This document shows, piece by piece, positions 47,860-64,000 of a DNA stretch of 64,000 nucleotides (its first letter is position 1; the number at the start of each line of letters is the position of its first letter). Under the pieces are notes generated by a model. It had not been told where the DNA came from, made no database searches, and saw only the letters and a program-made list of their open reading frames with translations. This stretch comes from Candidatus Peregrinibacteria bacterium (GTDB taxonomy: Bacteria; Patescibacteriota; Gracilibacteria; UM-FILTER-43-11). Location: contig JAFGCR010000011.1 of assembly GCA_016932495.1 (NCBI GenBank), forward strand, positions 4,973 to 68,972. The letters run 5' to 3'. Both the position numbers and the translations under genes were made by a program.

Positions 47860-49887
47860 ATGGACAATCTTGAAAAAGAACTTTACCGGCTGTCGAAAGT
47901 GGAACCCAGTTCCAAGTTTTGCCGTCAGGCGAAAGACCGCTTGATACACAAAATCACCTTAAGCGCGAATGAAGCCTGGTTTTTAAGGTTGTTTAAAAAG
48001 GTGTTTTCGGTCAGTCCTTCTCCTTATTTTATTGAGCGTGCCCGTGTGCGTCTATTAGAACAGATCGAAGCCATGAAACGGCCGGTTTTCAGCTGGCTGC
48101 TTTTTACCAAGCGTGTGGTGGCCACTACGCTGGTCATGCTGATCGCCGTTACTACCACTTTGTTCTTTGTTGACGGCAAACAGCAGGTCAACGCGTCTGA
48201 GCCCACCTATTTAGAAGTCACGGGTGGAGAGGTCGCCGTTAAGCACGCTGATCGTCTGATTTGGGATGTGATCAATCAGCAGACCGAACTCATGGCGGGC
48301 GACTTAATACGTGTGGGTGATTCCGCGTCTGCAGTCATCCACTTTTTTGACGATTCCGAAATTCGTTTATCCGAAGACGCCTCCCTTTTATTGAGCCGGT
48401 TAGACGTCAGCCCCGGTTACGCCCGCCAGGGGATTATTGAGGTTTCTTTGCATCAGGGACGGGCATGGGTGCAGACTTTGAATGCCGATGACGGTTACGC
48501 GCGTTTTGCTCTGGTTACTCCCGACGCCATTGTTTCCACTCAGTATGCTTCGTTCGACGTTGAAACCAACCTTTTTGCCCCCACGGTCATCCGCGTATTT
48601 AAGCGCGGCGTGGAGGTAAAAGCCCTGCGTCAGGAATCCCGCGATGTGCTGGCGAGCGGTATGCTTAACACTTATCAAAAAGTCACCCTGGAGGCGGCCA
48701 CTCCCTATCAGCCCTCTGCTGATCTGTCGGTTTTTGCTCCCATTTATGAACTTACCGACGAAGACCGCGGAGAGGCATGGGCTTCCCAGAATCTGGAAGC
48801 TGACCGCGCTCATTTGGCTCAATTACGCGACCGCGAACTCATTACCCTCCGCGCGACGACGGGCTTTTTGCCGGGTCAGGTCTTGTATCCCGTAAAACGG
48901 GCCAAGGAACGCCTGCAGCTGGCTTTTGCCTTTAATGAAGAAAATCAGCAAAACACGCAGGTCGCCATGGCGAATGAACGTTTATCTGAGGCATTGGTTC
49001 TGATCGAACAAGGCCAGACCGACCCAGCCAAGCTGGCTTTAATGGAATATCAGCACCTTGTCCGCCAAATAACGGAGGCAAAGACCACCGAAGAAGTCAA
49101 AGACCAGTTATCTAACCAGGTAGTCGCCACCCATCAAAAAACCCTTGTCGCGGCCCTGCCGGGTGACGCGCGGGTGGGAATCATAAAACAAGCGCTCGAT
49201 CAAACCAAAGAACTGTTAGCGGAAAATCCTGTGGAACGTGCCCAGATCCGTTTAAAAAACAGCCTGGAAGACATGATCCATGTTCAGGAGCTGGTGGAGG
49301 CCGGCGACATAGAAAGCGCTGAAGAAACCCTTGTGGACCGCGAAATCATGGCCGTTTTATTATTAGAAGAAGCATCGGCCCTGGAGGATGAGGAGCAAAA
49401 GAAGGTTTTATTCACCCAAATCCTGGATACTCAATACGAAGAACAGCGCATTCTGAACGAATTAAACCGCCAGCTGGCCGATACAGAAGGCCCATTGGCG
49501 GCTTTGATTGAGAACGCCCACTTATCCATCAAGGAAGACATCAAACATACCGCCGCGGTGGTCCAGCCCCTCCTTCCGGACGTGGTTTTGAGCGAAGCGG
49601 TGATCCTGCCGGAAGACGAAAAGGTTATTGAGTTTGTAAACAAGGTCAATATTTACAGCACGGCCCAGGGGCAGGCTAACCAGATCAAACGCCTGCTTAC
49701 CAAGCACCCGCAATACGCCCAGAATCAGGAATTCCTGACCAAAGTCCGCGACCGTCTGGACGCGCGCTCTCAGGACCAGATCAACGTGTATCTGCTTGAA
49801 CTGAAGCGCGAAGCGACCGAGGCGAAAAGCAAAGTGGTGAAGCGGAAGATCGATCAGGCGAAGCGGGCGATGGAAGATAGGCGATAA
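47860..49887 (+). CDS. putative anti-sigma factor-like membrane protein (single TM, FecR-like beta domain, long helical C-terminal region)
   Basis: ATG at 47860 is preferred over 47668, which overlaps the sigma gene. TM segment VVATTLVMLIAVTTTLFFV. GDLIRVGDSASAVIHFFDDSEIRLSEDASLLL. Sits directly downstream of the ECF sigma. Confidence 0.6.
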   Translation: MDNLEKELYRLSKVEPSSKFCRQAKDRLIHKITLSANEAWFLRLFKKVFSVSPSPYFIERARVRLLEQIEAMKRPVFSWLLFTKRVVATTLVMLIAVTTTLFFVDGKQQVNASEPTYLEVTGGEVAVKHADRLIWDVINQQTELMAGDLIRVGDSASAVIHFFDDSEIRLSEDASLLLSRLDVSPGYARQGIIEVSLHQGRAWVQTLNADDGYARFALVTPDAIVSTQYASFDVETNLFAPTVIRVFKRGVEVKALRQESRDVLASGMLNTYQKVTLEAATPYQPSADLSVFAPIYELTDEDRGEAWASQNLEADRAHLAQLRDRELITLRATTGFLPGQVLYPVKRAKERLQLAFAFNEENQQNTQVAMANERLSEALVLIEQGQTDPAKLALMEYQHLVRQITEAKTTEEVKDQLSNQVVATHQKTLVAALPGDARVGIIKQALDQTKELLAENPVERAQIRLKNSLEDMIHVQELVEAGDIESAEETLVDREIMAVLLLEEASALEDEEQKKVLFTQILDTQYEEQRILNELNRQLADTEGPLAALIENAHLSIKEDIKHTAAVVQPLLPDVVLSEAVILPEDEKVIEFVNKVNIYSTAQGQANQIKRLLTKHPQYAQNQEFLTKVRDRLDARSQDQINVYLLELKREATEAKSKVVKRKIDQAKRAMEDRR

Positions 49888-50011
49888 TGAATGGCAAATA
49901 GTTTTTTGTCATCGCAGGTTAGAAAACCTGCTCTGCCAAATGGACTATTAATTTTATTATTTTCAAAGGCAGAGCGGACTTTCTAGTCCGCGAATGCCGT
50001 TTTTTGGCATA

Positions 50012-50051
50012 GGAAAAGAGCGCCGACCGACGGGGAAGTCGGTGACGCTCT
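50012..50051 (-). terminator. GC-rich hairpin plus U-tract downstream of the GC-rich 342-aa gene
   Basis: GAGCG..ACCGAC (50018-50031) pairs with GTCGGT..CGCTC (50038-50050). An A-run at 50014-50017 on the plus strand gives the U-tract on the minus strand. Confidence 0.65.
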
Positions 50052-50076
50052 TTGGAGGGGAGTTCTGGTCCAGCGA

Positions 50077-51105
50077 TCAGCTGAGCTGGCGCTGGGTGTT
50101 CGTGTTCGGTTTGACGAAGGTGCCGGTGAGCACCATCGCCAGGCAGCCTGCGCCGACCATGGCCAGGGCGGCCACAGGGCTGAAGCTGTAAGCGATGATG
50201 ATGGCACACACCAGGGAGCCTGCGCCGATGAGGCTCTTGCCGAGCCGGCCAGGCGTTGCCACGGTGATGTGGGCGCCCGTGCGGCGCATGTTGATGGCCG
50301 TGATGAGCTGGATGAGGGCAAAGTAGAGTCCTGCCAGCAGGGCCAGGATGAGCAGGAACGAGGTGGTGCCTGAGACACCGTGTTCCACGGTAGCTGCGGC
50401 CTGACCGGCCGATGACAGCTTGGGCTCAGTGGGGCTGAAGTAGTCCACCGAGTCATCCCGATAGGACACGATTTTGACCTCCTCGTCCTGGACGATTTGG
50501 TCTTCAGGGGCGTCGATTGCCCCGCGCGTGAGATACCGGTCCCGCGGGACGAGGGGGGATTCTTCCAGCGGGATGCCGAGGCTGCTGATCAGCCAGTTGT
50601 TGACGTCGCCGTCCGGCAGGAAGCGTCCGACCATGTTGAGGGTCACTGGCAGGATGCTGACCTTGCGCTTGCCCTTCTCAACGGTGAGATGGGCGTAGAG
50701 CAAGCACTCGAGTTTGAGCTCGTACGTGCGGATCTGCAGGCCCTTCTCCTCGAGCTCGCTGACCCGGAACACCCGCTTGACCGGGTTGTTCGCGTTGGGG
50801 TTGGCTTGCTCACAGGTCGTGAAGTTCCCCCACTGGTAGTTCTCACGGTCGAAGTCGGCAGTACCGGGTGGGAACTTCTCGGACCAGAACAGGATGCGGT
50901 GGTTTTGGCGGTCCTTGTCCGCCTCGTCTTCGTAGAACACCACCGTGCCGTTGTTGGCGTTGATCACGTTGTAGAGCGCACGGGCGTCGTACTCGGTGAT
51001 CGCGACGCCGGGGCCACTAGCCTTTTGTTCGAACGTGACCTCCTTGGCGGAGGCCGGAGAGACGATGATCAGGGTCACCGCAACGATCAGTGCGAAGCGT
51101 TTCAT
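50077..51105 (-). CDS. secreted protein with a C-terminal multi-TM anchor, encoded by a compositionally foreign GC-rich gene
   Basis: GGGAGGA SD before the ATG. Signal peptide MKRFALIVAVTLIIVSPASA|KE. About 3 C-terminal TM helices. 43/60 G+C in 50221-50280. Confidence 0.7.
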   Translation of the reverse strand: MKRFALIVAVTLIIVSPASAKEVTFEQKASGPGVAITEYDARALYNVINANNGTVVFYEDEADKDRQNHRILFWSEKFPPGTADFDRENYQWGNFTTCEQANPNANNPVKRVFRVSELEEKGLQIRTYELKLECLLYAHLTVEKGKRKVSILPVTLNMVGRFLPDGDVNNWLISSLGIPLEESPLVPRDRYLTRGAIDAPEDQIVQDEEVKIVSYRDDSVDYFSPTEPKLSSAGQAAATVEHGVSGTTSFLLILALLAGLYFALIQLITAINMRRTGAHITVATPGRLGKSLIGAGSLVCAIIIAYSFSPVAALAMVGAGCLAMVLTGTFVKPNTNTQRQLS

Positions 51106-51348
51106 GGTTTTCCTCCCTATTTCTAGTTCGTTTGAACCTTGGTTACCAAAAGTACAACTCGCCTGCGGGCGAGAAAAAGAGACGTTAAATTTATCTATTT
51201 AGCTCGCGTTGGCGAGAGTGTTTATTGCGACCAGAACTCCTTGCCTGCCAGGAGCTTTACGTCCCCTAGGGGCGCTGGGCTACACTAACAGACAGAAGGA
51301 TGGCCGCAATGAAGCTAATTGTAAAAGAACATGATTGAAAGTGAAAAT

Positions 51349-51377
51349 ATTATACAATATTTACTATAAAATGTCAA
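51349..51377 (-). promoter_or_regulatory. perfect consensus sigma-70 promoter TTGACA-N17-TATAAT (minus strand)
   Basis: -35 is the reverse complement of 51372-51377; -10 is the reverse complement of 51349-51354. The leader is about 240 nt and carries several GC hairpins. Confidence 0.7.
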
Positions 51378-51416
51378 TACATTTCTGCCCTTCTTTTTTC
51401 CATTAATTTTTTTGAT

Positions 51417-52370
51417 TTATGTTGCGAAATTATAGGCAAGCGGCTGTGGGCGTTTGATAATAGCGCGCGCCCTTTCGCGGATGCTTTGCACACCGCCTAA
51501 TTTAAAGATTTCACCTACACCTGAGAGTATTTTTAAGCCTTTATGCTGGCGCCGAAAGCCGTTTGTAACCGATTCTACAGGGGTCAGGGCAGTTCTTGTA
51601 ATATTAGCGCCATAAGAAAAGCCAGCTAACCCGATTTCTCCTATAGTGGCCCCCACACCCCTTCCAAAGGCCTCAAAAGGCTGTGTAAAGGCCTTTCCTG
51701 GCAAGGTGGCAGGCGATATAACGTGATGCAGAGCCTGGCGGCTATCTCTGGCCATCAGAGCCTTTGGGGCATCCCATAGTGCTCTTTTGAGCCCCTTAAG
51801 GCCCTGCCAGGGCACATTTACGGGGAATTTTATACATTCCCAGCCAAAACGCGCGGCTTTGCTGATGCCAGTGGCCGGAATATTCCACATAGTCCGGAAA
51901 CCTGTCATGATATTGTCATGAAGCGCGTACATAGGCAGGCGCACAAACATGCTTTTGCCAGATTCTATAACCGGTCCGCCGGTAAGATGATAGGCGCCCA
52001 CAGGTAATCGGGCAGTTTGTTTTAACATTGTTTTTCCCGGTTCGTAATAGCTACTGGTTTTAACATAGTTTTTTACCCCTCTGGTACCCGCCTTGAGGCC
52101 CTCCCAGGGCAAAACTAACCCCGCGTAAAAGGGGGCGACTAATAATCTTGGGATCACTCCTTTTACGCTTTTGGGGCTGATCAGCCAGCGGCCTACACGC
52201 CAGTTTTTGGGAGCTTCCGCAGCCTCTGCGGCTACTGCTTCTGTTTTTTTACCCAAGCCGATTTTGCCTGCCAGGCCGCCCAGTTTTTCACTGAGTTTAT
52301 AAGTCAGGCGTTTTTCCGTTAAGAGCGGGTTGGTTTGGTAGTGCCGGTAATGTGAGGTGGTGGTATACAT
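51417..52370 (-). CDS. hypothetical basic protein
   Basis: 317-aa ORF in the minus-strand array. No motif recognised. Confidence 0.6.
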   Translation of the reverse strand: MYTTTSHYRHYQTNPLLTEKRLTYKLSEKLGGLAGKIGLGKKTEAVAAEAAEAPKNWRVGRWLISPKSVKGVIPRLLVAPFYAGLVLPWEGLKAGTRGVKNYVKTSSYYEPGKTMLKQTARLPVGAYHLTGGPVIESGKSMFVRLPMYALHDNIMTGFRTMWNIPATGISKAARFGWECIKFPVNVPWQGLKGLKRALWDAPKALMARDSRQALHHVISPATLPGKAFTQPFEAFGRGVGATIGEIGLAGFSYGANITRTALTPVESVTNGFRRQHKGLKILSGVGEIFKLGGVQSIRERARAIIKRPQPLAYNFAT

Positions 52371-52399
52371 GTGGGGTGGTTAGTGGGTGGGAACCCTCC

Positions 52400-52555
52400 A
52401 ACCTCCCTTCTCAGGGAGGCATAATCGGTGGGTTTTTTACACTCCCTTCTCAGGGAGGCATAATCGGTGGGTTTCTTACACTCCCTTCTCAGGGAGGCAT
52501 AATCGGTGGGTTTCTTACACTCCCTTCTCAGGGGGGCATAAGTGATGGGCATTAT
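52400..52555. repeat. 39-bp tandem repeat array, about 4 copies, each with a 6-bp hairpin CTCCCT-tctc-AGGGAG
   Basis: Units at about 52400-52438, 52439-52477 and 52478-52516 (the last two identical), and 52517-52555 (degenerate, overlapping the stop of the 764-aa gene). Confidence 0.9.
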
Positions 52556-54846
52556 TTTTTCGCCTTACGTTCCTCTTCTTTTTCCTGCCTTTTGCGTTCC
52601 CTTTCCGCCTCTTGTTTCAGCAACGCTCCGGTGCGGCTCCGAATGTTTTTGACGAATTTTTCTCCGTCTTCATTCAGTAAGGCATTTTTTGTTTTTTCTT
52701 CCTCTTTTTTTTCTTCCTCTTTGGGTTTACGGACCTCGGTTGTGAATTCAAAGAGTGTGAGCAGGCTTTTTTTCATTTGCTGAGCCATTTCAAAATCTTC
52801 CTGCGAGACGTAATACTGGCCGGTTGTTTTATCGACGGGTTCATACGGGGCGTTTTCATCCAGCAGGATGCCCAGTTCCACCATGATCGGCTGGAGGATC
52901 TGGGTTTCAATTTCCCTTTTTATATCCGCCAATCGGCTGTCCGAAACGCCTTTAACATATAATTCGATTAATTTTTCAAAGTCAAAAGGGGTGTCGAATT
53001 TGGAAAAATCACAGTCTTTAGGAGCCACTCCGGGGATATTTTGTGAATAATCCCGGTTAAACCCCTCTTCGCGGTCGCCGTAGGCCTTACGGCATTGTTC
53101 CAGCGCTTCCCGGAAAGGTTTTGGCATCGCTTTGCCCTGGTAGTTCAGACGGCCCTGCATGGCGGCGACAAGGAAGTCAAACCATTGAATGGCCTCCCGG
53201 TAATCCGGATTATTTTTCAATCCGTCTAATGCCTTTTTGGCCTGCTCGAGAGCATCCTCTTTAGGGGCTGAAAAGCATTTCTCCAACGCTTCCCAAATCG
53301 CCTGATTACGTTCCCGGGTCTGTTCATAAATACGATTTCCCAGCACAATGATCCTTTCATAATCACCGGCAAGGGTTATTTTTTCGTCCCTCAGCATCAT
53401 TTCGATTAATTCTTTTAAAGAAGTGGCCTTTTTGCCTTCCGGAAACTCATGCAGGAGCACTTCCAGGATGGAATTAATTTTTTCTTCCACCTCTGTTTTA
53501 AGTGAGTCAAAATTTACTTTAGCATCCCGCGCCTTTTTGCGTCCCAGGGGCGTGTTAAACAGAAAATCAGCTATTTTAGACGGCACTTCCGGCATTATGT
53601 TCAGCACCAGTTCTACCGCGTCGTCTGCCTCGTCTAGCGGCCGTCCCTCATTGATCGCGTCCGTGATTTCTTCCAAAGCCCATTCCAGCATTTCGGCTTC
53701 GTCAGCGCCTTCTCCTTTTAAACCTACTAATGCCTCCTGGATTTTTGGCAGGGCAGCCTGAATTATCTGAATGTCTTCTCTTACTGTTGGCGCAAACGCA
53801 TTCCCTTGAGACGCTGTCCGCAGATGCCCGAGGGCCTCCCCGATGTTACTGCCTAAATACTGGAGGGCAATTTTTTGGGTTAAAACATCCGCATTGACTC
53901 CGAACGGGCGCAAAAAGGCTTTACCTCCTTCGGTTTGAGCCCAGGCAAAAAGCCGTTTTCCGCTCAGGCCTTTTAAGGCAAACAGCCGTTCTAACGCGGT
54001 TTTAAATTCGGGAGTGCGCAAACGAAACAGCTGTTCAACGCCTTTCGCGTGTTTTTCGTATAATTTTCGTTCTTTTTCTTCACCTTTCTGCTTTTTCTGG
54101 ATTTCCTGCGTCATAGGGACAAGCACCGCATCCAGAAATTCTTTGAGGTGCGGATTTTGTTCACGCATACTGTGGAAAACCGACAGCATTTCTTTGAAAA
54201 TGGCTTTTAAATTTTGGCGGTTTTTAGGGTTTTTCATACCCTTAAACCATTTGAACATCTCTGTAGCGAGGGCTGGGAAATGCATTTTCCCCCGTTTTTT
54301 GTCGAGTAACTGGTGACATTCTTTCATGTGCTTCCCGTTTAACTCCAGTACTTTCATAACCGCCTTGGACAGAGGGCCATCCGGCTCCTTCATCTCATTG
54401 TAATGAGGCAGGGTTTCACAATCTTCAATCCCATGGTCCTGAAAATATTTTTTTGTATGGGCGGTGTTCCCCAGGCTAAAATGGCTCATTAAAGCCAGTG
54501 CCAGGCTGAAATCGGCCAGCGCTTTTTGGAGCTGTTCTGATTGCCGTGGGCTGTCGACTTCCCCCGCGAAAACTTCATTCCAAAACGACGTCATAAACTG
54601 ATCAAAGCCTTCTACTTTCTGCTCCTGTTTTTTGCTTAACTGATCGCCTTTGCCACCCCCCAGAACAAATATTGCCCCCTGTAGCGGTTTGCCATAGGTT
54701 TCTTTTAATTCACTCCAAAAACGCCCTAAAATGGCTTTAATTTTTCCGCGCCGTGCTTCCTGGGCTTCTTTTTGGGTGCGGGCCAATTCCCGATTAGCCG
54801 GGTTTAAATTGATTCGCGGAGTGTTGGGTTGATTGGGTGCGTTCAT
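52552..54846 (-). CDS. hypothetical large alpha-helical protein with a Lys/Glu-rich C-terminus
   Basis: 764-aa uninterrupted ORF. No catalytic or nucleotide-binding motif found by eye. Confidence 0.7.
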   Translation of the reverse strand: MNAPNQPNTPRINLNPANRELARTQKEAQEARRGKIKAILGRFWSELKETYGKPLQGAIFVLGGGKGDQLSKKQEQKVEGFDQFMTSFWNEVFAGEVDSPRQSEQLQKALADFSLALALMSHFSLGNTAHTKKYFQDHGIEDCETLPHYNEMKEPDGPLSKAVMKVLELNGKHMKECHQLLDKKRGKMHFPALATEMFKWFKGMKNPKNRQNLKAIFKEMLSVFHSMREQNPHLKEFLDAVLVPMTQEIQKKQKGEEKERKLYEKHAKGVEQLFRLRTPEFKTALERLFALKGLSGKRLFAWAQTEGGKAFLRPFGVNADVLTQKIALQYLGSNIGEALGHLRTASQGNAFAPTVREDIQIIQAALPKIQEALVGLKGEGADEAEMLEWALEEITDAINEGRPLDEADDAVELVLNIMPEVPSKIADFLFNTPLGRKKARDAKVNFDSLKTEVEEKINSILEVLLHEFPEGKKATSLKELIEMMLRDEKITLAGDYERIIVLGNRIYEQTRERNQAIWEALEKCFSAPKEDALEQAKKALDGLKNNPDYREAIQWFDFLVAAMQGRLNYQGKAMPKPFREALEQCRKAYGDREEGFNRDYSQNIPGVAPKDCDFSKFDTPFDFEKLIELYVKGVSDSRLADIKREIETQILQPIMVELGILLDENAPYEPVDKTTGQYYVSQEDFEMAQQMKKSLLTLFEFTTEVRKPKEEEKKEEEKTKNALLNEDGEKFVKNIRSRTGALLKQEAERERKRQEKEEERKAKK

Positions 54847-54936
54847 GGTGGTTTTAAATTAGATAAATGTGATAGTTAATAGGTGTATGGCGGGGGGACT
54901 TGCGTCCCCCGCGCCGTTCATGTTGTGAACTCTGGG

Positions 54937-55716
54937 TCAGGCCATGCGGATCATGGTGTCGCGGGCCACTTCGGCGAGCGGCTCCAGGGAGCTCTCGCGC
55001 AGGTCCATGGCCCTCTGGATCTCGTTGTACATCGTGTCGATGAGGGCGTGGTCGTCCGGATGGTCCTCGGTGAGGCCATCGCGGAGGTGCTCCATGGCGA
55101 CCATGAAGGCCGGAGCGTCGAACATCCCGTGCTTTTGGAGGCTGGGATCGTTCTGGAAGCCTTCGTACAGGTCGCCGAAGCAATTGGCAATGATCTTGGC
55201 CTTGGGGTTGCCCCGGAAGGCTTTGATCGTGCCCATGGACCGGATGGCCCCGCCACTGAGACGGGCGGCTCCGGTGATGATGCCGGCACTGCCGCGGCCG
55301 AGCGCCTTGGTCCCCTTGCCGATCGAAGAGAACCAGCTGCGGTTGAAGAAAAACATGGTGATGAGCAGGAGCGCCATAGCCGACCAGATGCCAGAGCTGA
55401 CCAGGGTGATCAGTGCGACGATGAGCGAGTAGCCCACTACGACACGGATGATCCATCCGAGAATGGGGACCATGCTGGTGATCGAGATAATGCCCCAGAT
55501 CTTGCGCCCCCACATAAAGAGGGCGTAGGCGAAGATGATCCACTTGATGAAGGCGAGGTCCCCGTCGAGCTTGATGTTCCACGGGAGGTGGTTCGTCACG
55601 AGCAGGACCTTGGCGGCCAGCACTTCGGGGAGGTTGATGAGAAACATGATGATGTTCACCAGGGTCTCACCAACTCCGTAGATCGCGTTGACCTTCTCTT
55701 TGAATTCTTCCCACAT
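54937..55716 (-). CDS. polytopic membrane protein with a soluble C-terminal domain, encoded by a compositionally foreign GC-rich gene
   Basis: AAGGAAG SD before the ATG. About 4 TM helices. 24 of the first 32 codons end in G/C, with all Ile as ATC and all Asn as AAC. 37/60 G+C in 55021-55080, against 24/60 in 56101-56160. Confidence 0.7.
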   Translation of the reverse strand: MWEEFKEKVNAIYGVGETLVNIIMFLINLPEVLAAKVLLVTNHLPWNIKLDGDLAFIKWIIFAYALFMWGRKIWGIISITSMVPILGWIIRVVVGYSLIVALITLVSSGIWSAMALLLITMFFFNRSWFSSIGKGTKALGRGSAGIITGAARLSGGAIRSMGTIKAFRGNPKAKIIANCFGDLYEGFQNDPSLQKHGMFDAPAFMVAMEHLRDGLTEDHPDDHALIDTMYNEIQRAMDLRESSLEPLAEVARDTMIRMA

Positions 55717-55874
55717 GTTTCACTTCCTTTCGTATTCCTAAGCCCGCAGGCTTGTTTTCAGGTTCACAACAATGAGTTCGACCGCCGCTCAAGAGAGCAA
55801 AATTACTCCTTGGGCGACAGACCGCTCATTGCTGTTTTAGCGATTTTTAAAAGAGCATTGTTACAGAGATAGTT

Positions 55875-55903
55875 ATTTTATAATATTATTTATAATTTGT
55901 CAA
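55875..55903 (-). promoter_or_regulatory. sigma-70 type promoter TTGACA-N17-TAAAAT (minus strand)
   Basis: -35 is the reverse complement of 55898-55903; -10 is the reverse complement of 55875-55880. The leader is about 155 nt. Confidence 0.65.
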
Positions 55904-55935
55904 TAGCTAATTACCTCAATTTATTGTTTCAAAAA

Positions 55936-55974
55936 ACAGCCATTACCGTATGGTTTTCTGGCTGTTTTGTTTTA
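55936..55974. terminator. bidirectional terminator-like hairpin after the 1747-aa gene
   Basis: ACAGCC (55936-55941) pairs with GGCTGT (55960-55965). It is flanked by an A-run upstream and TTTTGTTTT downstream. Confidence 0.55.
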
Positions 55975-56033
55975 ATATAATAAGCTTAATTTTTAAGGGT
56001 GTCAATACCCTTAAGGCAACCTTTTTGTACCGT

Positions 56034-59000
56034 TTATTTTGTTGGTTTGGCCAGTTTTTCTAATCGGTCGTTCAGGGCTTTATTCAGCTCTTTAAACACA
56101 ATATCCAATCCTGTTTTAGCTCCGCTTAAGATAGACATTACTACTGACTCCGGAAGATTCATCACATCGTCTCTAATGAATTTTTCTGATAAATATGGGA
56201 TCCATTTATTTTGTGGTAATTTTACTCCTTTTATTTTAGGGACATTTTCCCCCCGGAAATAAGCCGTCATGTTTTCTGCTAAATACCGCCGATAAGCCAG
56301 TTCGACCGCGTCCGCATTAAAATATTCTTTTATCCCTGCTATTACACTTACGTCTTTGGCAGCCTGCGCGATTACATTATGGTACTCGTCAAACTGTTTA
56401 GGAATATTACTGTTTTTGCCGAATTTACGCACCAGCTCCGCGCGCATGCGGGTGCCGCTTCGAGACCAGTGCTGTTCTTCCATGAATTTCTCCTGATAAT
56501 TTTTTTGGATCGCTTCAAAGAATTTAATCCTCAGATTGTCATTTTTGCCATAATCCATTAAAGGCTCTCCTTCGGCCGCAGCCTGGGCATGGTCCAGCAG
56601 TTTTTTCAGGTCCCAGCCGCCGGTATCTTTAGCCTGCCATAAATCAAAGGCTTTCATGAATTTTTTGGCCTCGTGGCTATCGAGCGAAGAAACATATTTA
56701 GGAGGAATGACCTCATCAATGCCAAATACAATGGTGTGCTTATAGTCTTCCAGGTCCCCATACCGCCAGTTACGGTTTTTGCGCATGTAGTACTCATAGT
56801 TTAAACGCACTTTCTTTTTTATTTCTTTCCCTGTGGCCTGATCGACATAGGTATATTCTCTTGTAGCCCGATGCTGTTCATGAATGGGAGTAGGAACCCT
56901 TAAAAACAGCAGGTAACCATTTTGCGTGTTGCGGAAAGAGCCATATCGTTGGATCATCGGTTCTACGTGGGCGCGGATTCTGTCTTTATCCCGGCTTTGG
57001 ATGGCCTGAGTGAATTCATCATTGGGATCCAGATAATCCACATAGGCTGTATGATTCGCGTCTTGTGTGTGGAAGAATTCCACTAAATTTTTCACCGCAT
57101 CGCGGTAGGCTTCATCCCTTTGGTCCGTCAATGGCCTAATTGAATCTTTGCACACCCCCATAAAGTTCACATAGCCTTCCGGTACCCTAAAATCAAAACG
57201 CTGCATCGGTTCTGTCATTAAATTTTTACGAGCCAGCAAACCTCCTTTGTTCTGCCAGTCGTACCAATCTTCTTCGTATTTTCCAAAAATTTCATATCCA
57301 TTGGTAATAAAATTTAGCTTCCAGGATTCTTCTTTGTCTTTTAGCGCTTCAGCAAGCGCTTTCTGGTCAATGTTATAAGGGCCGGTTTCATCGGGGAACA
57401 TATTGTGCACAACCCGTATTTCATTTCGGCTCCAGCGCTGAAAATTTGATTCTACCTTAGTTAAAGCGGTCGCCAGTGTATCAGTGGCGCGGTCGCCTAA
57501 TTCTAAAGTGGCGACAAAAGGCAGTTTTACGCCTGTAGTGATGATCTGCCAGGTATTATTGGCCATGCGTTTAAGCCGCAAGGCGGTTTCACCTTCTTTC
57601 CACCATACCGAGATCTCCCGGCCGGTTTCAGCAGTAAATTCCCAGCCTTTCTGGCCCCATTCTTTCATGGTGCGCCAGGCTTCCGGGCCGTAATCTTCCG
57701 AGAATTTCCGTATAGTTTCGTCGGTAAAATATTTGACTTTGCCTTTCAGGTGGAGCCAGCTTGGCAGAGCTTTGTTTTTGTATTCCACCATTTCGTTGTA
57801 CAGCCAGCTGGGTACTCCCAGTAAGCCTTCATGTTCGCGGTTGGCCTGTTCCCATTCAGCGGCAGTGCTCAATACTTCGCTGGCTTCTTTATAATTCCAT
57901 TTGTAGCCGCCGTCCTGCAGATCTTTGGCCTCATCAGGCGCCAGGTAAAGCACTTTTCCTTTTTCGGCCGCTTTTTTAAATCCTTCCGCGGTGAAGTGGT
58001 AGTACAATTCGTCACGGCCGGCTTTAAGCAGCTGTTCACGATCGGTTATTGTCCCACGAGTGGCACGTTTGCCGATCATTAACAGTTGCTTTTCAATCAC
58101 ATCCACAAACTTGGCGCCAACGGCTTCTTTGTTGGTCTCGTCGGGCATGATCTCATCCAGCTCCCGCGGTTTCAAAAGCCCGGAACGGGTAAGGGAAGCA
58201 TAATGGCTGTAACCACGATTTTTGGCTTTGTCCTGAGCGCTCCAGCCGTATTCACCCCGGCCGTCGTACCACTTTATAATATCTTCGATTTTTTTGTCTT
58301 TCAAAGTGTCCAAAGCCCGGTGGCCAGCCTGGTCATCATATTCAATTCCGCTGTTTTTAGCCTCTTTGTGCAGCCAGGAGCCCCGCGCGGTTTCCGCAGG
58401 ACTGTCGATTCCCAGGAAGCTGAGGGCGGGCTTGCCAGTTACGTTTTCATAAATCATCCCAATACCCAAAGCCGCCGCCGTTCCGCGGATTAACTTTCCC
58501 GGCCACCCTTGGCCGGAGACTCCGCGGGAGATGACGAGATAGGCCATAAACCCGTAAATAAAACGCACTTCCGGCCGTACGCCGGAGCCAAAAATGTTCT
58601 CAAACACATGACCGCCCACCTTATGCACCCGTTCCATTAATGTATTTCCTTTGTCGTACATGCCCTCTTCGTAGTCGATTTTGTTTTTCAGGTCTTTTTG
58701 GGCTTGCTCAGTACGGCGCTGGAATTCGCGGATAAATTCCCTTAACACCTCCCGCGCGTTCTCGTGTTCAGGGTGTTTTGGGTCTTGTAAGGCCTCCACA
58801 AAAGCCTGATTACCGGGCGTGGCGCTTAAAATACGGGTCAGCACTGTGACCGCTGCGCTTTCACCTCCCTTCTTATTAGCCAGTTTTTCATCTAAATCTT
58901 TTTCCCATATGCCTACCTGAGTTTCGGGGTTGGACCAGTAATTGCCTTTAAAATAGCGGTAAAACGCGCCTTGCCATACCACTTGGTTGGCCGCGCACAC

Positions 59001-61277
59001 GCGTTCAAATTCCGACATTCCTTCTAAGGCCTGGGCTTCCACGTTTTTAAAGTAGTCTTTTAATTTATCATTCGGGACGCCTACTATTTCCGCCAGCTTA
59101 TTTATTCGTATTTCATTCCGGCGGTTTACAAAATTGTTACTGATGTCATTCAGGATTTCTGCGGCTAACACACTATCTCCTGCTTCTATTTTTTTGACTA
59201 TTGTTTCCCATTTGGCTTTATCTTCCGGCGACATTCCGGTTGTGTCCCGGCCGGTGATCATTTCGTACAGTACGTTCCCTTTAAGAGGCCGTTTAAGTTT
59301 TTCAAGATATCCTGTTTTGGCGGTGGATCTGCTGGCATACGTTAACATTTCTGTCAGGCGTCCGATGCGCGTCTGCATAACGGCTTTTTTGTCAGCGTCT
59401 TTTTCTGTTGTAAGATTTGTTCGTAATTCGCCGATATATTTTTGTGTCAGCTCTCTGCCACTCAGCGTGTCCATGTCCATATACAGCTGGTTCAGTTTTT
59501 CCAGATCCTTTTTAATGCCTGTTTTTTCTTCGTCGTTATAATAATAAGAAACCTTCGGCAGCATATTGATCTCCGCGATCCGGCTGGAGACAAGGGCCGC
59601 TTTGTCGATATCCACCTCTTTTAAACTGGCGCCATCCATTCCCACATATTGCTTCAGGGTTTTGTTCAGCAAAACAGCTTTTTCATGCATGCCTTTCAAA
59701 CGCCCTGATTGCTCTTCGTAGAATTCATCATCCGGCGTAAAGCCTTCATCGAGAGCCTGGCGATAAACCACACGCAAAACAATTAAGTCCACCTCGATTT
59801 GACTGTGAAGGCTCCGGATCTGCTGTTCATAAGAAGCTAATTCAAATTCTTTCAGTACCTCGTGTTCAGGCAGGCCGTTTGCATCTAAAAATTCCTTTTT
59901 TCCGCTGTCCGGATTGAATTCTTTGCCCTGAAAAAGTTTGTCGTGCTTATAGGCTCCTTTCTTTTCCTGAATTTTGTAGTTGGGGCCGATTTTAATGCCC
60001 TCTAGTTTTGCGAATTCATCTACTTTGTCCACTCCTGCCAGCATCGCAGTAGTCAGCAGGTAAGCGCGGGTACGAGGGTCGCGGGGGAGCTGTTTGCCAT
60101 ATTTTTGTTTGATTTGGTCCATGACCATCAGGTACATGTCCATGGCCATTTTTACGTTTTCCGGCGCGCGTGACTGGCCGTCCTCGATCAGTTCTTCGTA
60201 ATATACCAATCCGCTTTCGGCAGTCACACCAAGTCGTCCTTCCAGGATTTTTTTGGTCTGATTCAAAGCTTCCAGTTCAGCCTCTGCATTTTTAAGGGCA
60301 ACCGGATTGTCTGTTCGCGTGGCTGCTTCCTTAGCGATTTCCTGTTTTTTGATTTCAGCATCATTCAGTTCGATTGATTTGCGGACGCCCATGTCATCAA
60401 TAATCTTCATTTTGGGGCTCGCCTCCATCGCCTTCAGGTAGATGTAGGCTTCCCGCACAAAGGCCAGATGTTTATCGATAAATTCGATTTGGTCTTTTTC
60501 AACCAGATGTATGTAGGCCTTGGCATTAGCAATTTCTGGTGCTGTTCCGCTGATATTTTCTACAACACTTTTACCTTTTTCGGCGTTGTTTTTGGCAATA
60601 GCGCCGGCATTTGTCAGTTGTTCCAGATAACTCTTGGAATCAGCCAAATATCCTTCCAATTGTGTTTTATTTTTTATTTTGCCGGTAGGAACGGTATTGA
60701 CGAGATTCCGATATTTAGCGGAATCAAGGGTATCCCCTTCAGCGGTGCCCATTTCGATCAAGGGAACATTTTCCAATTCCGTTTTTTCATTAGCTCTCAA
60801 AACTTCATTAATCTTATCCTGCGCGCTGCCCACCTGTCTTCGGTTCAAACCTGCGTAGCTGAATTTTTCGGCCTTAATTCCTCTGGCTGTATTGGCCAAC
60901 TCTTTTCGCATACTCTCCAGGCGGGCGTTCATACTGTCCAGCGCAGTGGTCTTTTCTTTAGTCCCCGCATATTCGGTTGCCAGTTTTTTCAGGTTGGGAT
61001 GGTTTTTATCAATGCCGGTCGGGCTGGTGGGATTGTTCAGTTTCTGCAGGCGGATGTATTCCAGCAGGATCCGGAAATCATCGCTTTTACCCTCAAAAGC
61101 CTTATATTCAGGTTTATTGGGGTAATGGCTGATAACATCCTGAATAAGCTCCCCCGTATCTTTGCTTGTTTCGATGGTTTCTTTTGCCTTTTTTAATTCA
61201 GGGTTTTTGTACACATACAATAACCGGTTTTCTTTAGCGCTCCCTGCGTCTGAGTTCTCAAGGCGGGAAAGGGTCAT
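56034..61277 (-). CDS. giant hypothetical protein (1747 aa)
   Basis: Single uninterrupted ORF, mostly helical. One internal hydrophobic hairpin (FIYGFMAYLVISRG...AAALGIGMIY). No Walker A or HExxH motif found by eye. Confidence 0.8.
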   Translation of the reverse strand: MTLSRLENSDAGSAKENRLLYVYKNPELKKAKETIETSKDTGELIQDVISHYPNKPEYKAFEGKSDDFRILLEYIRLQKLNNPTSPTGIDKNHPNLKKLATEYAGTKEKTTALDSMNARLESMRKELANTARGIKAEKFSYAGLNRRQVGSAQDKINEVLRANEKTELENVPLIEMGTAEGDTLDSAKYRNLVNTVPTGKIKNKTQLEGYLADSKSYLEQLTNAGAIAKNNAEKGKSVVENISGTAPEIANAKAYIHLVEKDQIEFIDKHLAFVREAYIYLKAMEASPKMKIIDDMGVRKSIELNDAEIKKQEIAKEAATRTDNPVALKNAEAELEALNQTKKILEGRLGVTAESGLVYYEELIEDGQSRAPENVKMAMDMYLMVMDQIKQKYGKQLPRDPRTRAYLLTTAMLAGVDKVDEFAKLEGIKIGPNYKIQEKKGAYKHDKLFQGKEFNPDSGKKEFLDANGLPEHEVLKEFELASYEQQIRSLHSQIEVDLIVLRVVYRQALDEGFTPDDEFYEEQSGRLKGMHEKAVLLNKTLKQYVGMDGASLKEVDIDKAALVSSRIAEINMLPKVSYYYNDEEKTGIKKDLEKLNQLYMDMDTLSGRELTQKYIGELRTNLTTEKDADKKAVMQTRIGRLTEMLTYASRSTAKTGYLEKLKRPLKGNVLYEMITGRDTTGMSPEDKAKWETIVKKIEAGDSVLAAEILNDISNNFVNRRNEIRINKLAEIVGVPNDKLKDYFKNVEAQALEGMSEFERVCAANQVVWQGAFYRYFKGNYWSNPETQVGIWEKDLDEKLANKKGGESAAVTVLTRILSATPGNQAFVEALQDPKHPEHENAREVLREFIREFQRRTEQAQKDLKNKIDYEEGMYDKGNTLMERVHKVGGHVFENIFGSGVRPEVRFIYGFMAYLVISRGVSGQGWPGKLIRGTAAALGIGMIYENVTGKPALSFLGIDSPAETARGSWLHKEAKNSGIEYDDQAGHRALDTLKDKKIEDIIKWYDGRGEYGWSAQDKAKNRGYSHYASLTRSGLLKPRELDEIMPDETNKEAVGAKFVDVIEKQLLMIGKRATRGTITDREQLLKAGRDELYYHFTAEGFKKAAEKGKVLYLAPDEAKDLQDGGYKWNYKEASEVLSTAAEWEQANREHEGLLGVPSWLYNEMVEYKNKALPSWLHLKGKVKYFTDETIRKFSEDYGPEAWRTMKEWGQKGWEFTAETGREISVWWKEGETALRLKRMANNTWQIITTGVKLPFVATLELGDRATDTLATALTKVESNFQRWSRNEIRVVHNMFPDETGPYNIDQKALAEALKDKEESWKLNFITNGYEIFGKYEEDWYDWQNKGGLLARKNLMTEPMQRFDFRVPEGYVNFMGVCKDSIRPLTDQRDEAYRDAVKNLVEFFHTQDANHTAYVDYLDPNDEFTQAIQSRDKDRIRAHVEPMIQRYGSFRNTQNGYLLFLRVPTPIHEQHRATREYTYVDQATGKEIKKKVRLNYEYYMRKNRNWRYGDLEDYKHTIVFGIDEVIPPKYVSSLDSHEAKKFMKAFDLWQAKDTGGWDLKKLLDHAQAAAEGEPLMDYGKNDNLRIKFFEAIQKNYQEKFMEEQHWSRSGTRMRAELVRKFGKNSNIPKQFDEYHNVIAQAAKDVSVIAGIKEYFNADAVELAYRRYLAENMTAYFRGENVPKIKGVKLPQNKWIPYLSEKFIRDDVMNLPESVVMSILSGAKTGLDIVFKELNKALNDRLEKLAKPTK

Positions 61278-61407
61278 TTGGGTTTGTTTTTGTTTTAATA
61301 AATTTATCTATATATTATACCAAAAAAAGCATATTTTAGCTAGTAAATATGTTTGACCGATTTAAGAGAATATGGCGTTTGCTTTTTAGTCTATTTTTAT
61401 CTCCTAT

Positions 61408-62379
61408 TTACCTGTTGTTCCATTTTTTCTTTAACCACTTACTGCCTTTATCGAGCCATTTTTTGCCCTTTTTCTTGAGCCGGTGTACTTGGTATAAGCC
61501 TTCCATCGCCAGACTTTCTTCCACAGTCACGCCCCATTGGAAATGGTGTTTTTCACTCCATCTCCAGCCCCCGAGCCAGAAGAACCCTTCAGCAATCAGA
61601 TAGGGCTTTGCTTCCGGCCAGTTTGCCACATCCACGGCTAAGCCGACCTCATGCAAAGAGTGCCCAGGAGGGGCTGTTGGCGGGAGTTTTGGGTTTTCCT
61701 GCTTGGCGATAAATAAGTCATTTTGCTGCATGTTCACGCTAAAAGCGCGGCTGATTTTAATATGGCCTTTCCCGTCAGCTACCATTTTTTTATCGGCCTG
61801 AATAAATGCTTTGGCGGCCGGCTCTTTTAGCTTATAGAGCTCATCGATATTCATTTCATATTTATCATATTTATATCGCCCGCATTCCTCAGGTAATTCT
61901 TCCAAATCCTCATCCACTAATTTGTCGCCGGCGGTTTTAACCAATTCAGGACTTAGATAATTGCCGGTGGCTGAATCTTTTTTATACCCCTTTTTGTCCA
62001 GAGCCTCCGCTAATTGTTTGACTGCCTCCGATTCCTTCGCATTATGTATTGTCATCAATTCATCTAAATCGATCTGCTCGATCAGCTTATCTACCTCTTC
62101 CTTAATTTCTGATTGCCGCTGTTTGTCGATTTCATATGAGGCAACAGCGGCCAGACCTAATATCAAACTGCCGATAAGAAACCGGCGGCGGCTGATCAGG
62201 ATTTTTTTAGCCTCCCTCTCAGCCTTTTCCGGGTCTTGTCGGCCTGCCTGCACGGGTGCCTCCCCCTGGGCACGTGCTTCTTCGCCTACCTCTTCCATGG
62301 TCGGAAAGCGGTCTGGCGCCTGAAAGCCCGGTGCGTTGGGGTCGTTGTTGTTTCGCGGGGGGTTAGCCATTAGCGGCAA
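61408..62379 (-). CDS. membrane-anchored peptidase M15 (VanY / D-Ala-D-Ala carboxypeptidase-like) cell-wall hydrolase
   Basis: Disordered N-terminus. TM segment FLIGSLILGLAAVASY. PGHSLHEVGLAVDV (SxHxxGxAxD type) and WSEKHHFQWG (ExxH type). Confidence 0.7.
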   Translation of the reverse strand: MPLMANPPRNNNDPNAPGFQAPDRFPTMEEVGEEARAQGEAPVQAGRQDPEKAEREAKKILISRRRFLIGSLILGLAAVASYEIDKQRQSEIKEEVDKLIEQIDLDELMTIHNAKESEAVKQLAEALDKKGYKKDSATGNYLSPELVKTAGDKLVDEDLEELPEECGRYKYDKYEMNIDELYKLKEPAAKAFIQADKKMVADGKGHIKISRAFSVNMQQNDLFIAKQENPKLPPTAPPGHSLHEVGLAVDVANWPEAKPYLIAEGFFWLGGWRWSEKHHFQWGVTVEESLAMEGLYQVHRLKKKGKKWLDKGSKWLKKKWNNR

Positions 62380-62686
62380 AATTAAGGGTGAATTGGGCGA
62401 ATTGATTCAGTGAGTCGGTGATATTCTCCAATAATTGGGGATTCTCTGTTAAATAAGTCTCGAGCACATTGTCCATCGGAATCCCCATTTCCTGACTCAT
62501 TTTTAGTGTGTCTTCCAGGTCTTCCGCGCTCATGTATTCGCTGATCTCCTCCATCATGATGTCATTGGCCTGCAGGGTCAGGTTTGCCTTCACTGAGTTG
62601 GTTTGCAGTTCTTTAGGAAGTTCGTTGTACAGGCTCTCAATAAAGTCTTCCAGGCTCAATTGTGTGATGTCATTATTTTGAGGCAT
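62363..62686 (-). CDS. hypothetical small acidic protein
   Basis: 107 aa, Glu/Asp-rich. Its 3' end overlaps the start of the M15 peptidase gene by 17 nt, which suggests translational coupling. Confidence 0.5.
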   Translation of the reverse strand: MPQNNDITQLSLEDFIESLYNELPKELQTNSVKANLTLQANDIMMEEISEYMSAEDLEDTLKMSQEMGIPMDNVLETYLTENPQLLENITDSLNQFAQFTLNFAANG

Positions 62687-62724
62687 GTATTATTTTATAT
62701 ATAAATTTATATTTTGTCAATATT

Positions 62725-64000
62725 TTAGGCTGTTGCCGGCATCAATCCTTTTTTACGCTGGCGGCGATGCCATAAGCCTTTAGTCAATTTCCATCCGCTC
62801 CAGCCCATAATGGTCAATGAAGTGGCGGGCCAGCCCCCCAAAAAGATGCAGGCGGTTACAAAGGCGCTGGCTTTGGCAGTTCCTTTCGGGTGTTTTTTTA
62901 CAAAATTATACAATTTTCCCAATCCAAATCTCCCCCCTTTTCCAAATATCTTAGTTAAACCCCAGGCGCCCGCGGCCAAACCACGCCCTGCCCGCCGGGT
63001 GAGATAGTTTTTACGATGTTCTTTTAGAAACGCTTTCATGTCGTCCGGTAAATCCACAGCCACATGTTCCCGGGCTTCAGCTAAGCTCAGGTTAAAATCA
63101 TCGATTTGTTTAAATACTTCATGCATCCGTTCTTCTTTTGACAGCTCTTCCGTCTCTGCCCGTATGCCCTTTTTTACATTATCCACCAAATACATCCGGT
63201 AGGCATGGATTAAATTCTTTTTAACAGCAAACAGCTGTTTGGCGGCCCGATAATTAACCCCCATTTTAAGAAAACGCCTTTCATCCATCAGGCCTTGCAT
63301 GTGGCTTAACAGGGCGATTATAGCCCTTTTCAGTTCAGCGGGCCGTTCCTTTTCGCTGAACTGGTCGGCCAGCGTATTGATCCATTTTTTGGTAACTGCA
63401 GTGTCTTTTGTTTTTAATCTGATCACCTGTGCCATTACCTTCCGCGCCTTTTCCGGCAGATGGGTGAGCGGGCCTTTTTCGCTGGTCAGAAACGTCAGCA
63501 CTTCTTTTTTGTCCGCCCCTCTTAATTTATGCCGTTTTTCTTCCGGCGGATGATGTGCTTTCAGGGTTTTTTCGGTTTTTTGCAGGATGATTTCAGTTCT
63601 TTGCACGGGATCCATATCCTCGTTTTCCATGAAAAATCCATGAATATGCATCACCATGGTCTCGGCAGAGATTTTCCGGCTTCTTTTCAGCCGGTTCCGC
63701 GTGCCGTGGGTGATCATGTTCAGTTCTTTGTTGAGCGTGCCTGTTTTTTGTTCGATGGCGTTTAATTTTCCACGCAATTCCTGCTGGCCGCCTTCGCCGG
63801 TGCGCAATTCCATCAGGCGGTCGATTTGTTCTTTGGCCGGGCTGGCACCCTTTGGCAATCCTTTAATATCCTCCTGCAGACTGCGGATGTCTTCGTTTAC
63901 ATATTGGAGCTGTTGGGTGATTTTCTTTTTTTCTGCCTCGCTTTCTTCGAGCTGGACTTTGCGTTTATGCACCTCTTCACGGGTCTTTTTTTCTGTCCAT
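62725..64000 (-). CDS. hypothetical coiled-coil protein with a C-terminal TM segment; 5' end runs off the window
   Basis: The frame remains open from the GTG at 63972 to base 63997. C-terminal hydrophobic stretch AFVTACIFLGGWPATSLTIMGW. Confidence 0.65.
   Translation of the reverse strand, partial: WTEKKTREEVHKRKVQLEESEAEKKKITQQLQYVNEDIRSLQEDIKGLPKGASPAKEQIDRLMELRTGEGGQQELRGKLNAIEQKTGTLNKELNMITHGTRNRLKRSRKISAETMVMHIHGFFMENEDMDPVQRTEIILQKTEKTLKAHHPPEEKRHKLRGADKKEVLTFLTSEKGPLTHLPEKARKVMAQVIRLKTKDTAVTKKWINTLADQFSEKERPAELKRAIIALLSHMQGLMDERRFLKMGVNYRAAKQLFAVKKNLIHAYRMYLVDNVKKGIRAETEELSKEERMHEVFKQIDDFNLSLAEAREHVAVDLPDDMKAFLKEHRKNYLTRRAGRGLAAGAWGLTKIFGKGGRFGLGKLYNFVKKHPKGTAKASAFVTACIFLGGWPATSLTIMGWSGWKLTKGLWHRRQRKKGLMPATA

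Follow-up and report, generated by a model that had tools for sequence, protein, structure and literature searches.

The window is a stretch of 64,000 nucleotides from the genome of a Candidatus Peregrinibacteria bacterium, and its positions 54880-55903 form a GC-rich segment, segment C, which holds a gene for a membrane protein of 259 amino acids, P0001. Segment C is a native, vertically kept gene and a conserved member of a surface-protein gene array of the Peribacteria, which belong to the candidate phyla radiation (CPR). What makes it GC-rich is a synonymous dialect specific to the gene, made up almost entirely of NNC and NNG codons, and this excess of G+C at third codon positions (GC3) is actively maintained by the lineage rather than left over from a transfer. 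Furthermore, comparison of the related loci suggests that the message appears to be closed by a covarying pairing, here called the clamp, of its 5' and 3' untranslated ends. The best explanation found, to which we give somewhat better than an even chance, is that of a native envelope gene carried in a conserved cassette for a clamped mRNA and written in a lineage-maintained codon dialect. All coordinates are those of the window, and all elements of segment C lie on its minus strand.

Place in the array and codon dialect

The source genome is 1.175 Mb long, 47.9% GC and 98% complete. Across the loci compared, homology of the flanking genes was established by BLASTP. A homolog of the 259-aa gene was found directly upstream of a homolog of the window's 764-aa gene in L001, L002, L009, L010, L011-L014 and L017, with amino acid identities of 18-74% and in at least two genera. 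Wherever the sequence reaches, a homolog of the giant 1747-aa gene lies upstream of it in turn, the sole exception being L017, in which an insertion sequence (IS) lies between. At L001 (74% identity) the order is the end of the giant gene, genes of 260, 769 and 318 aa, a GC-rich gene of 371 aa, and the genes for a DUF5667 anti-sigma factor, a sigma factor and GuaA. In the other genus (L009 of genome G023 and L010 of genome G015), identity to P0001 is 18-19% and the order is a 2000-aa giant gene, a gene of 263-268 aa with four transmembrane (TM) helices, genes of 725, 113-122 and 320 aa, and a GC-rich gene of 426 aa; homologs of the window's 415-aa and 107-aa genes and a weak, partial match to its VanY-like gene lie further upstream.

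The initial annotation had read the segment as foreign and inserted between the 764-aa and 1747-aa genes. This is not supported, since the same position and the same GC3 excess recur in all loci with a homolog. Its suggestion to look for relatives having the two flanking genes adjacent, with no insert, brought up no such case, as an empty site was found in none of 41 relatives, 31 genomes of the family and 401 genomes of the class. It had also named a homolog of native composition in relatives as what would speak against an insertion; the homolog is always present, while native composition never is, GC3 being non-native in every case. No direct repeat flanks the borders of the segment, and no integrase or transposase match was found in the array with Pfam and PHROGs. 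The array itself is patchy, being carried by 3 of the 31 family genomes and missing from both genomes of the same genus.

The composition anomaly clearly exceeds chance. Segment C has a GC content of about 0.60-0.65 where its flanks have about 0.46, and the coding sequence (CDS) of P0001 has values of 0.54, 0.39 and 0.87 at first, second and third codon positions. The first two are normal, and the third lies 3.7 standard deviations above the genome mean of 0.554 (standard deviation 0.087). Along the array, GC3 steps from 0.33-0.37 over the final 90 codons of the giant gene to 0.77-0.97 in the P0001 CDS and to 0.33-0.57 in the 764-aa gene, and the leader, with a GC content of 0.44, is not raised. 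The early remark that Ile, Phe, Lys and Asn are encoded almost only by C- or G-ending codons is borne out by the counts (ATC 26 of 29, TTC 11 of 14, AAG 10 of 12, AAC 9 of 10).

In all nine loci the gene has a GC3 of 0.56-0.87 against 0.32-0.57 in its neighbours, so that the excess is +0.23 to +0.48 whatever the background, and the gene type of another GC-rich segment, segment B, shows the same excess over its neighbours. Lower GC3 was found in the first eight codons of all eight orthologs tested. Four-fold degenerate sites differ at 39-56% in segment C versus 51-63% in neighbouring genes; between the window and L001 the difference is 44% in the P0001 gene and 51-59% in the neighbours, and synonymous sites have therefore largely turned over while remaining G or C. 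The conserved excess, the turnover and the relaxed first codons argue against a recent transfer as well as a passive relic. The same points argue against a regional force such as GC-biased gene conversion, which would be expected to run on across start and stop codons and to affect the initiation region as well.

Genome-wide, the strongest outliers in GC3 and dialect are about 10-13 genes, three of which are segments A, B and C, and nearly all of them encode signal-peptide, lipoprotein or TM proteins. Codon shares of this gene class were compared with those of marker genes (EF-Tu, EF-G, S12, S19, S4, L11, RpoB/C, GroEL and DnaK) and of the genome:

AAG (Lys): class 88%, markers 33%, genome 27%
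GAG (Glu): class 76%, markers 25%, genome 31%
TTC (Phe): class 94%, markers 43%, genome 40%
TAC, AAC, CAC and GAC: class 83-91%, markers 36-50%, genome 37-45%

The marker genes show approximately genome-average usage (AAA 67%, GAA 75%; GC3 of EF-Tu 0.53), and the class makes the opposite choice for Lys and Glu. The dialect is therefore not the usual expression-linked bias, and standard high-expression codon bias was rejected as its sole cause. The genome (G000) has 47 tRNA genes, a rich set for 1.17 Mb, with G34, C34 and U34 species in every box; since G34 and C34 tRNAs are present, NNC and NNG codons can be read by Watson-Crick pairing at the wobble position.

The leader, the 3' hairpin and the proposed clamp

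The cassette is ordered as follows: a consensus promoter, a leader with helices P1 and P2 followed by hairpin P3, a strong Shine-Dalgarno sequence (SD), the GC3-rich CDS, a 3' arm after the stop codon and a GC hairpin (P4) with no U tract. Its elements in the window, all on the minus strand, are:

55875..55903: sigma-70-type promoter TTGACA-N17-TAAAAT (TTGACA 55903-55898, TAAAAT 55880-55875), with 11 of 12 matches in a consensus scan
55844..55856: pyrimidine-rich box GCTCTTTTAAAAA near the 5' end of the transcript, found by eye
55759..55840: structured leader domain, made up of extended P1 enclosing P2, plus the 5' arm of the long-range pairing
55835-55825 with 55776-55766: extended P1, ACAGCAATGAG with CTCATTGTTGT, predicted by RNAalifold
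55816-55806 with 55797-55786: P2, CGCCCAAGGAG with CTCTCTTGAGCG, predicted by RNAalifold
55759..55772: 5' arm TTGTTGTGAACCTG, overlapping the 3' strand of extended P1
55740..55753: hairpin P3, AAGCC-tgcg-GGCTT, between the 5' arm and the SD
55723..55730: SD AAAGGAAG, 6 nt before the ATG
54937..55716: CDS of the 259-aa membrane protein P0001, from the list of open reading frames (ORFs) and its translation; an orphan family
54921..54934: 3' arm CAGaGTTCACAACA, starting 3 nt after the stop codon
54889..54915: P4, an 11-bp GC hairpin GGCGCGGGGGAC-gcaa-GTCCCCCCGCC with a GCAA tetraloop of the GNRA type and no U tract

All elements that the initial annotation described in this region are present where it placed them: its promoter at 55875-55903, the ORF at 54937..55716 with about four TM helices and a soluble tail, a leader of about 155 nt with a hairpin (55753-55740) and an SD (55730-55723), the downstream GC hairpin (54915-54889), and an inverted match between the leader and the sequence after the stop, which extends over 10 nt at full complementarity, were all recovered.

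The promoter is invariant in L001 and L002, and an equivalent consensus promoter was found in L009, L010, L012-L014 and L017. Leader identity is 91% to L001 and 85% to L002, when identity at four-fold sites is 41-61%. From a plain MAFFT alignment of six leaders, RNAalifold predicted 31 pairs, 9 of them with compensatory changes; in P1, for example, the pairing strands read CAATGAG/CTCATTG, CAGCGAG/CTCGTTG and CAGTAAG/CTTATTG. Hairpins at the position of P3 are present in 9 of 9 loci with unrelated sequences, all four scored pairs changing on both sides and 100% of cells being paired, and a purine-rich SD is present in all orthologs. On this alignment evidence the leader is a conserved structured RNA domain. 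Rfam 15 gave chance-level matches only (E > 2) over 49500-56500. A covariance model of the P1/P2 domain, R1, scored the segment C leader at 98 bits when run over the 401 class genomes, and it also matched the leader of a GC3-rich TM-protein gene elsewhere in the source genome (G000:C12:1642-1738) and that of its ortholog in G001. Both additional cassettes share the arm sequences of segment C and carry a GC hairpin on the 3' side, so that the leader family extends beyond the protein family.

In the second cassette of the source genome (G000:C12:1580-2640) the arms are TTGTGAAC and GTTCACAACA, followed by the GC hairpin. A GC-rich, non-periodic stretch of 280 nt separates the stop codon of its 155-aa CDS from the 3' arm, and may be the remains of a longer CDS; in the G001 ortholog about 70 nt lie there.

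The clamp was recognized from a perfect inverted match of 10 nt between 54921-54930 and 55762-55771, 831 nt apart, which extends to 13 bp with a bulge. The 5' arm follows P1 directly on its 3' side, its end being 42-48 nt from the ATG in 8 of 9 loci; the 3' arm is found at the stop codon or shortly behind it, with the GC hairpin next. The arms in the nine loci are as follows:

Window, L002 and L013: leader arm TGTTGTGAAC, 3' arm GTTCACAACA
L001, a variant: TGTTGTGAAT and ATCCACAACA, with one compensated pair and one A.C mismatch
L012: leader arm GTTGTTGTGCGGAA, 3' arm TTCCGCACAGCAAC; 14 bp with one G.U
L014: leader arm TGCTATGAACTACTA, 3' arm TAGTAGTTCCTAGCA
L009, L010 and L017: leader arm TGTGTTTGTCAC, 3' arm GTGACAA(A/C)CACA

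In short form, four complementary versions were thus found: TGTTGTGAAC/GTTCACAACA, TGTTGTGCGG/CCGCACAGCA, TGCTATGAAC/GTTCCTAGCA and TGTTTGTCAC/GTGACAA(A/C)CA. In the module alignment A4, with clamp registers chosen by hand, 95.9% of cells are paired, as compared to 69.6% after shuffling and 19-47% when the partner is slid, and in the clamp 94% of cells are paired, with 7 of 8 pairs compensatory, changing on both sides. Tested by duplex energy against shuffled 3' segments, the four lineages gave a combined p of about 1e-5. Three of the four sequence versions have a 5' arm that shares 7-10 nt with the 3' strand of extended P1, and the clamp and P1 would therefore be mutually exclusive.

Complements of this kind are found beyond the P0001 family. 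Four of 10 class genes have an exact 5'/3' complement of at least 10 nt, versus 5.4% of 910 control genes. Non-homologous GC3-rich genes carry covarying complements of their own, namely the segment B family (GGAGTTCTGGTC in the window, CAGAGTTTTTGG in L009, GAGTTTTGGTT in L014) and three gene families in G001 and G002, in one of which the compensatory change CCATTCA/GAATGG to CCGTTCA/GAACGG was observed. The initial suggestion that the other GC-rich segments share the same 5'/3' bracket is supported in this way, the bracket recurring with unrelated sequences. Class genes also have unusually long leaders, 87-263 nt; consensus promoters are not class-specific, as judged from crude regular-expression scans.

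A GC hairpin follows the 3' arm in every segment C ortholog and in other GC3-rich genes. In the window, a consensus scan of the same strand between P4 and the 764-aa gene found no promoter-like site. Because of this, and because P4 has no U tract, P4 is likely a barrier against 3' exonucleases in a read-through operon, or a processing end, and not a canonical terminator.

Boxes similar to the pyrimidine-rich one, G(Y)TCTTT(W)A(A/C)A, were seen by eye in the leaders of GC3-rich genes (segments A and B, C45_312, C18, L009/L010, L022 and L023), regular-expression scans being too crude to quantify them. They lie 18-54 nt from the -10 element, the sites in the window being at about 55844-55856, 51290 and 31000. 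Candidate roles for the box are a protein site, an anti-SD, or a partner of the strand freed by the clamp. A switch by SD sequestration, in which the box acts as an anti-SD released by the clamp, was tried and is not supported, predicted SD accessibility going up in 4 of 9 loci.

The protein and further features of the locus

P0001 has four N-terminal hydrophobic helices, which would make about four TM helices, followed by a soluble helical tail. The family shares a conserved C-terminal helical domain with the rough motif P-x-AK...F..L...F...P.L...GEFD.PAF.AA....RD.L....PDD...IE.VY. Searches of P0001 with Pfam, NCBIfam and PHROG profiles gave no match, and one family member has a weak match to TMP_3 (E = 0.002). 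An AlphaFold2 model of P0001 has a predicted local distance difference test score of 59 overall and 76-88 in the C-terminal domain; Foldseek with this model against the PDB returned nothing below E = 1. About 10 relatives were found in collections of 5.8e9 and 1.8e9 proteins, none of them outside the Peribacteria lineage, and each one that could be placed lies in the array. A profile search for the family added one further copy, which is truncated, and locus searches with single family proteins returned only the G015 record. Judged by context only, P0001 probably belongs to an envelope or host-contact apparatus as one of its membrane parts, because it keeps a fixed place beside giant exported proteins and an M15/VanY-like peptidase.

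Two features overlap or adjoin the gene:

54883..55872, plus strand: antisense ORF of 329 aa in a frame codon-aligned with the P0001 CDS
55931..56005, minus strand: upstream module of a second promoter TTGACA-17-TATTAT (56005-55977; 11 of 12 matches) followed by a hairpin and U tract (55965-55931)

The antisense ORF was rejected as a gene or a case of dual coding, as the frame has no stop in the window versus 2-9 stops in orthologs (9 in L002); it is a by-product of the avoidance of TTA, CTA and TCA codons. The upstream module adjoins the stop of the giant gene and is conserved in L001 and L002, with similar tandem arrangements in L012, L009 and L010. Its sequence would fit either a transcript of about 40 nt or a terminator between tandem promoters. 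Within the gene, the start-codon region (GAAGTGAAACATG, 55714-55726) is complementary at 11 of 13 positions to codons 23-27 (CATGTTTCTCATC, 55636-55648), and this partner is kept in L001 and not in L002.

Further observations concern the array. After the conserved genes for GuaA, an ECF (extracytoplasmic function) sigma factor and a DUF5667 anti-sigma factor, the locus is hypervariable (window 50077-64000 versus L022, which is G002:C12, and L023, which is G001:C5). In fact, in the same-genus genomes G001 and G002 a non-homologous array of giant and orphan genes, with small GC3-rich genes of its own, follows the same sigma/anti-sigma pair. In L017 (793-2647) the IS, with an rve transposase, is a secondary insertion upstream of the promoter. 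The CDS there is shortened to 180 aa, its C-terminal end being readable in another frame, and the leader, a perfect clamp of 11-12 bp and the 3' hairpin are intact. The additional gene of 113-122 aa between the 725-aa and 320-aa genes (L009 4997-5338, L010 3199-3567, L017 4962-5303) has a YbjQ-like Pfam match in L017 and no counterpart in the array of the window. GuaA of the window (45025-46794, plus strand), 589 aa long as compared to 590 aa in L001, aligns to the GMP synthase model of 512 positions in two separate stretches, which suggests that about 75 aa are inserted between its ATP-pyrophosphatase and dimerisation parts.

Explanations weighed and relation to known systems

For the preferred explanation, a native envelope gene in a clamped-mRNA cassette, we infer from the sequences that the complementary ends pair in RNA and that the pairing would stabilise the message. 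RNase J is encoded within the window, RNase Y was found above the family cut-off, motifs of RNase III and PNPase are present, and no RNase E motif was seen in a scan of the genome for motifs, which points to a decay system like that of Bacillus subtilis. A mechanism is proposed in which P1, the clamp and P4 meet at one junction and bury both ends of the first cistron, while C or G at third positions removes A/U-rich single-stranded tracts. Between them, buried ends and dialect would keep RNase Y, RNase J and PNPase off the message, which would then be long-lived and yield more P0001 than is made of the giant proteins probably co-transcribed downstream. Since the 5' arm overlaps the base of P1, the clamp would form only by opening part of P1, and in this way it may also act as a folding switch.

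Several findings weigh against this explanation. The 10-nt match alone is within chance, as two more exact inverted pairs of at least 10 nt lie within the same 1.8 kb, and it is significant only because of its conservation and covariation in relatives. The family in which these were observed is tiny, with 9 loci and about 4 independent lineages, and the hand-chosen registers of alignment A4 favour pairing. Imperfect clamp positions are as often A.C or U.C mismatches as G.U, so that the data do not separate pairing in RNA from inverted repeats in DNA. With the clamp in place, the SD is predicted to become more accessible in only 4 of the 9 loci. Furthermore, EF-Tu and the ribosomal proteins are without the dialect, which leaves a simple link between dialect and high expression unproven, and CDS folding, with z of -3 to -4.8 against synonymous shuffles in 6 of 8 cases, is to be read beside control genes which also reach -1.5 to -3.3.

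Other explanations were considered for the composition. That a foreign gene was recently inserted between two native ones by horizontal transfer would fit the GC content of 0.60 against 0.46 in the flanks, the sharp boundaries with an own promoter and the orphan protein, but it is extremely improbable: synteny already refutes it, the same position and GC3 excess being found in 9 loci, down to 18% identity and into another genus, and the anomaly is restricted to third codon positions, with no mobility genes, no target-site repeats and no homologs outside the lineage. It is also improbable that the composition is a relic, either of an ancient transfer not yet ameliorated or of the codon use of a GC-richer Peribacteria ancestor, retained in a few slowly evolving genes as the remaining genome moved towards AT. 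GC content varies widely in the class, genomes of Ca. Peribacter riflensis being 58.5% GC (PMC4736985), and four-fold divergence in segment C is somewhat below that of its neighbours (0.39-0.56 versus 0.51-0.63). Four-fold turnover is nevertheless heavy, the raw value of 0.44 corresponding to about 0.66 substitutions per site (Jukes-Cantor). Moreover, the excess persists where the proteins are only 18-28% identical and tracks the background of each genome, always at +0.23 to +0.48, and the relaxed first codons in every ortholog point to selection and not inertia. Little credence is likewise given to a mutational by-product, namely GC-biased gene conversion at recombination hot spots in surface genes exchanged between strains. 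The patchy array, present in 3 of 31 family genomes and missing from same-genus genomes, and the different array after the sigma/anti-sigma pair in G001 and G002 do suggest frequent exchange; against this, GC3 steps within about 30 codons of start and stop, the adjacent giant and 764-aa genes are unaffected, GC at first and second positions and in the leader (0.44) is not raised, and the first eight codons are spared in all orthologs.

Two further explanations bear on the bracket. Ordinary translational selection, by which the most abundant proteins use the NNC and NNG codons read fastest or most accurately and the features of the untranslated regions (UTRs) are incidental, is unlikely while keeping some weight. 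The codons match the G34 and C34 tRNAs present, and consensus promoters accompany strong SDs; S-layer genes elsewhere have strong promoters, long stabilising leaders and biased codons, which also counts in its favour. However, EF-Tu, EF-G, ribosomal proteins, RpoB/C, GroEL and DnaK stay near the genome average, and the covarying 5'/3' pairing would be left unexplained. Alternatively, the complements may act in DNA, as inverted repeats of an invertible (phase-variable) or small mobile cassette which are kept alike by recombination. Repeats of 10-14 bp do bracket SD and CDS, evolve in concert and show no preference for G.U, and the products are surface proteins, which are typical targets of phase variation. 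We regard this as decidedly unlikely, because in the assemblies 9 of 9 segment C loci and all other cassettes are in promoter-sense orientation and because a search with Pfam and PHROGs, limited to the array proteins, found no recombinase. In addition, one-base bulges are tolerated, the distance from arm to stop varies over 0-280 nt while the 3' hairpin always follows the arm directly, and the overlap of the 5' arm with leader helix P1 in three versions follows an RNA logic.

The native, clamped cassette, to which we return as the preferred explanation, has consequences for genome annotation. A sharp-edged compositional island with its own promoter and flanking inverted repeats looks like a textbook case of transfer, and here it is native and actively maintained; calls of horizontal gene transfer based on composition would mislabel this whole class of envelope genes in CPR genomes. 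If the RNA reading is true, closure between 5' and 3' UTRs, known for a few individual bacterial genes, would here be a modular design that recurs in many unrelated genes of an uncultured lineage, and synonymous codon choice would be linked to mRNA architecture rather than to tRNA abundance. The class would then mark the proteins in which these episymbiont-like bacteria apparently invest most, and so provide a shortlist for host-contact functions. A broader and more speculative proposal, itself unlikely, is a post-transcriptional envelope programme of the Peribacteria, in which non-homologous genes for surface and membrane proteins, written in the NNC/NNG dialect, form a regulon and each message is closed by a covarying 5'-3' helix competing with a leader helix. 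The switch would license stability or translation of complete or correctly processed transcripts only, uncoupling translation from transcription.

Genomes of Peribacteria were described as rich in large extracellular and cysteine-rich envelope proteins with strain variation (Anantharaman et al. 2016; PMC4736985); that paper concerns the same bacterial class and, as here, large exported envelope proteins, and a term search of it brought up nothing on codon usage or on GC differences between genes. In the literature, no report of such a codon or UTR phenomenon in Peregrinibacteria was found. Segment C would join the rare bacterial mRNAs with paired 5' and 3' UTRs, as a variant placed in an envelope-gene cassette with its own codon dialect.

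Among such mRNAs, the type I toxin messages hok/Sok and aapA1 have 5'-3' long-distance interactions supported by covariation (PMC9841398, PMC6733600). They resemble segment C in their mutually exclusive or metastable local helices and in a membrane-protein product, but theirs are toxic peptides of fewer than 60 aa under the control of antisense RNA, whereas the product of segment C has 259 aa and a conserved soluble domain, and its gene stands in an array of structural genes. In the icaR mRNA of Staphylococcus aureus, pairing of the 3' UTR to the SD stops translation and brings in RNase III (Ruiz de los Mozos et al. 2013; PMC3868564). Here too a 3' UTR is complementary to the 5' UTR of the same mRNA; unlike in icaR, the 5' arm of segment C leaves the SD free, being placed about 30 nt further upstream with its end 42-48 nt from the ATG. 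In one class member, C45_502, the complement overlaps its own SD.

By analogy, the closest known system to the segment C cassette is the hbs mRNA of B. subtilis, in which a 14-bp interaction of the 5' and 3' UTRs shields a structured leader and modulates cleavage by RNase Y (Braun, Durand & Condon 2017; PMC5737220). Both have a structured 5' UTR, a strong SD and a long-range 5'/3'-UTR interaction of about 14 bp, which in segment C would likewise shield the leader from RNase Y and RNase J, and the source genome has a decay system of RNase Y, RNase J and PNPase like that of the hbs host. Segment C, known from sequence alone, differs from hbs in that its 5' arm would compete with a leader helix. 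Furthermore, unlike that of hbs, its putative clamp is a trait shared by an entire class of envelope genes that are not homologous, goes together with a codon dialect of its own and encloses the first cistron of a probable operon.

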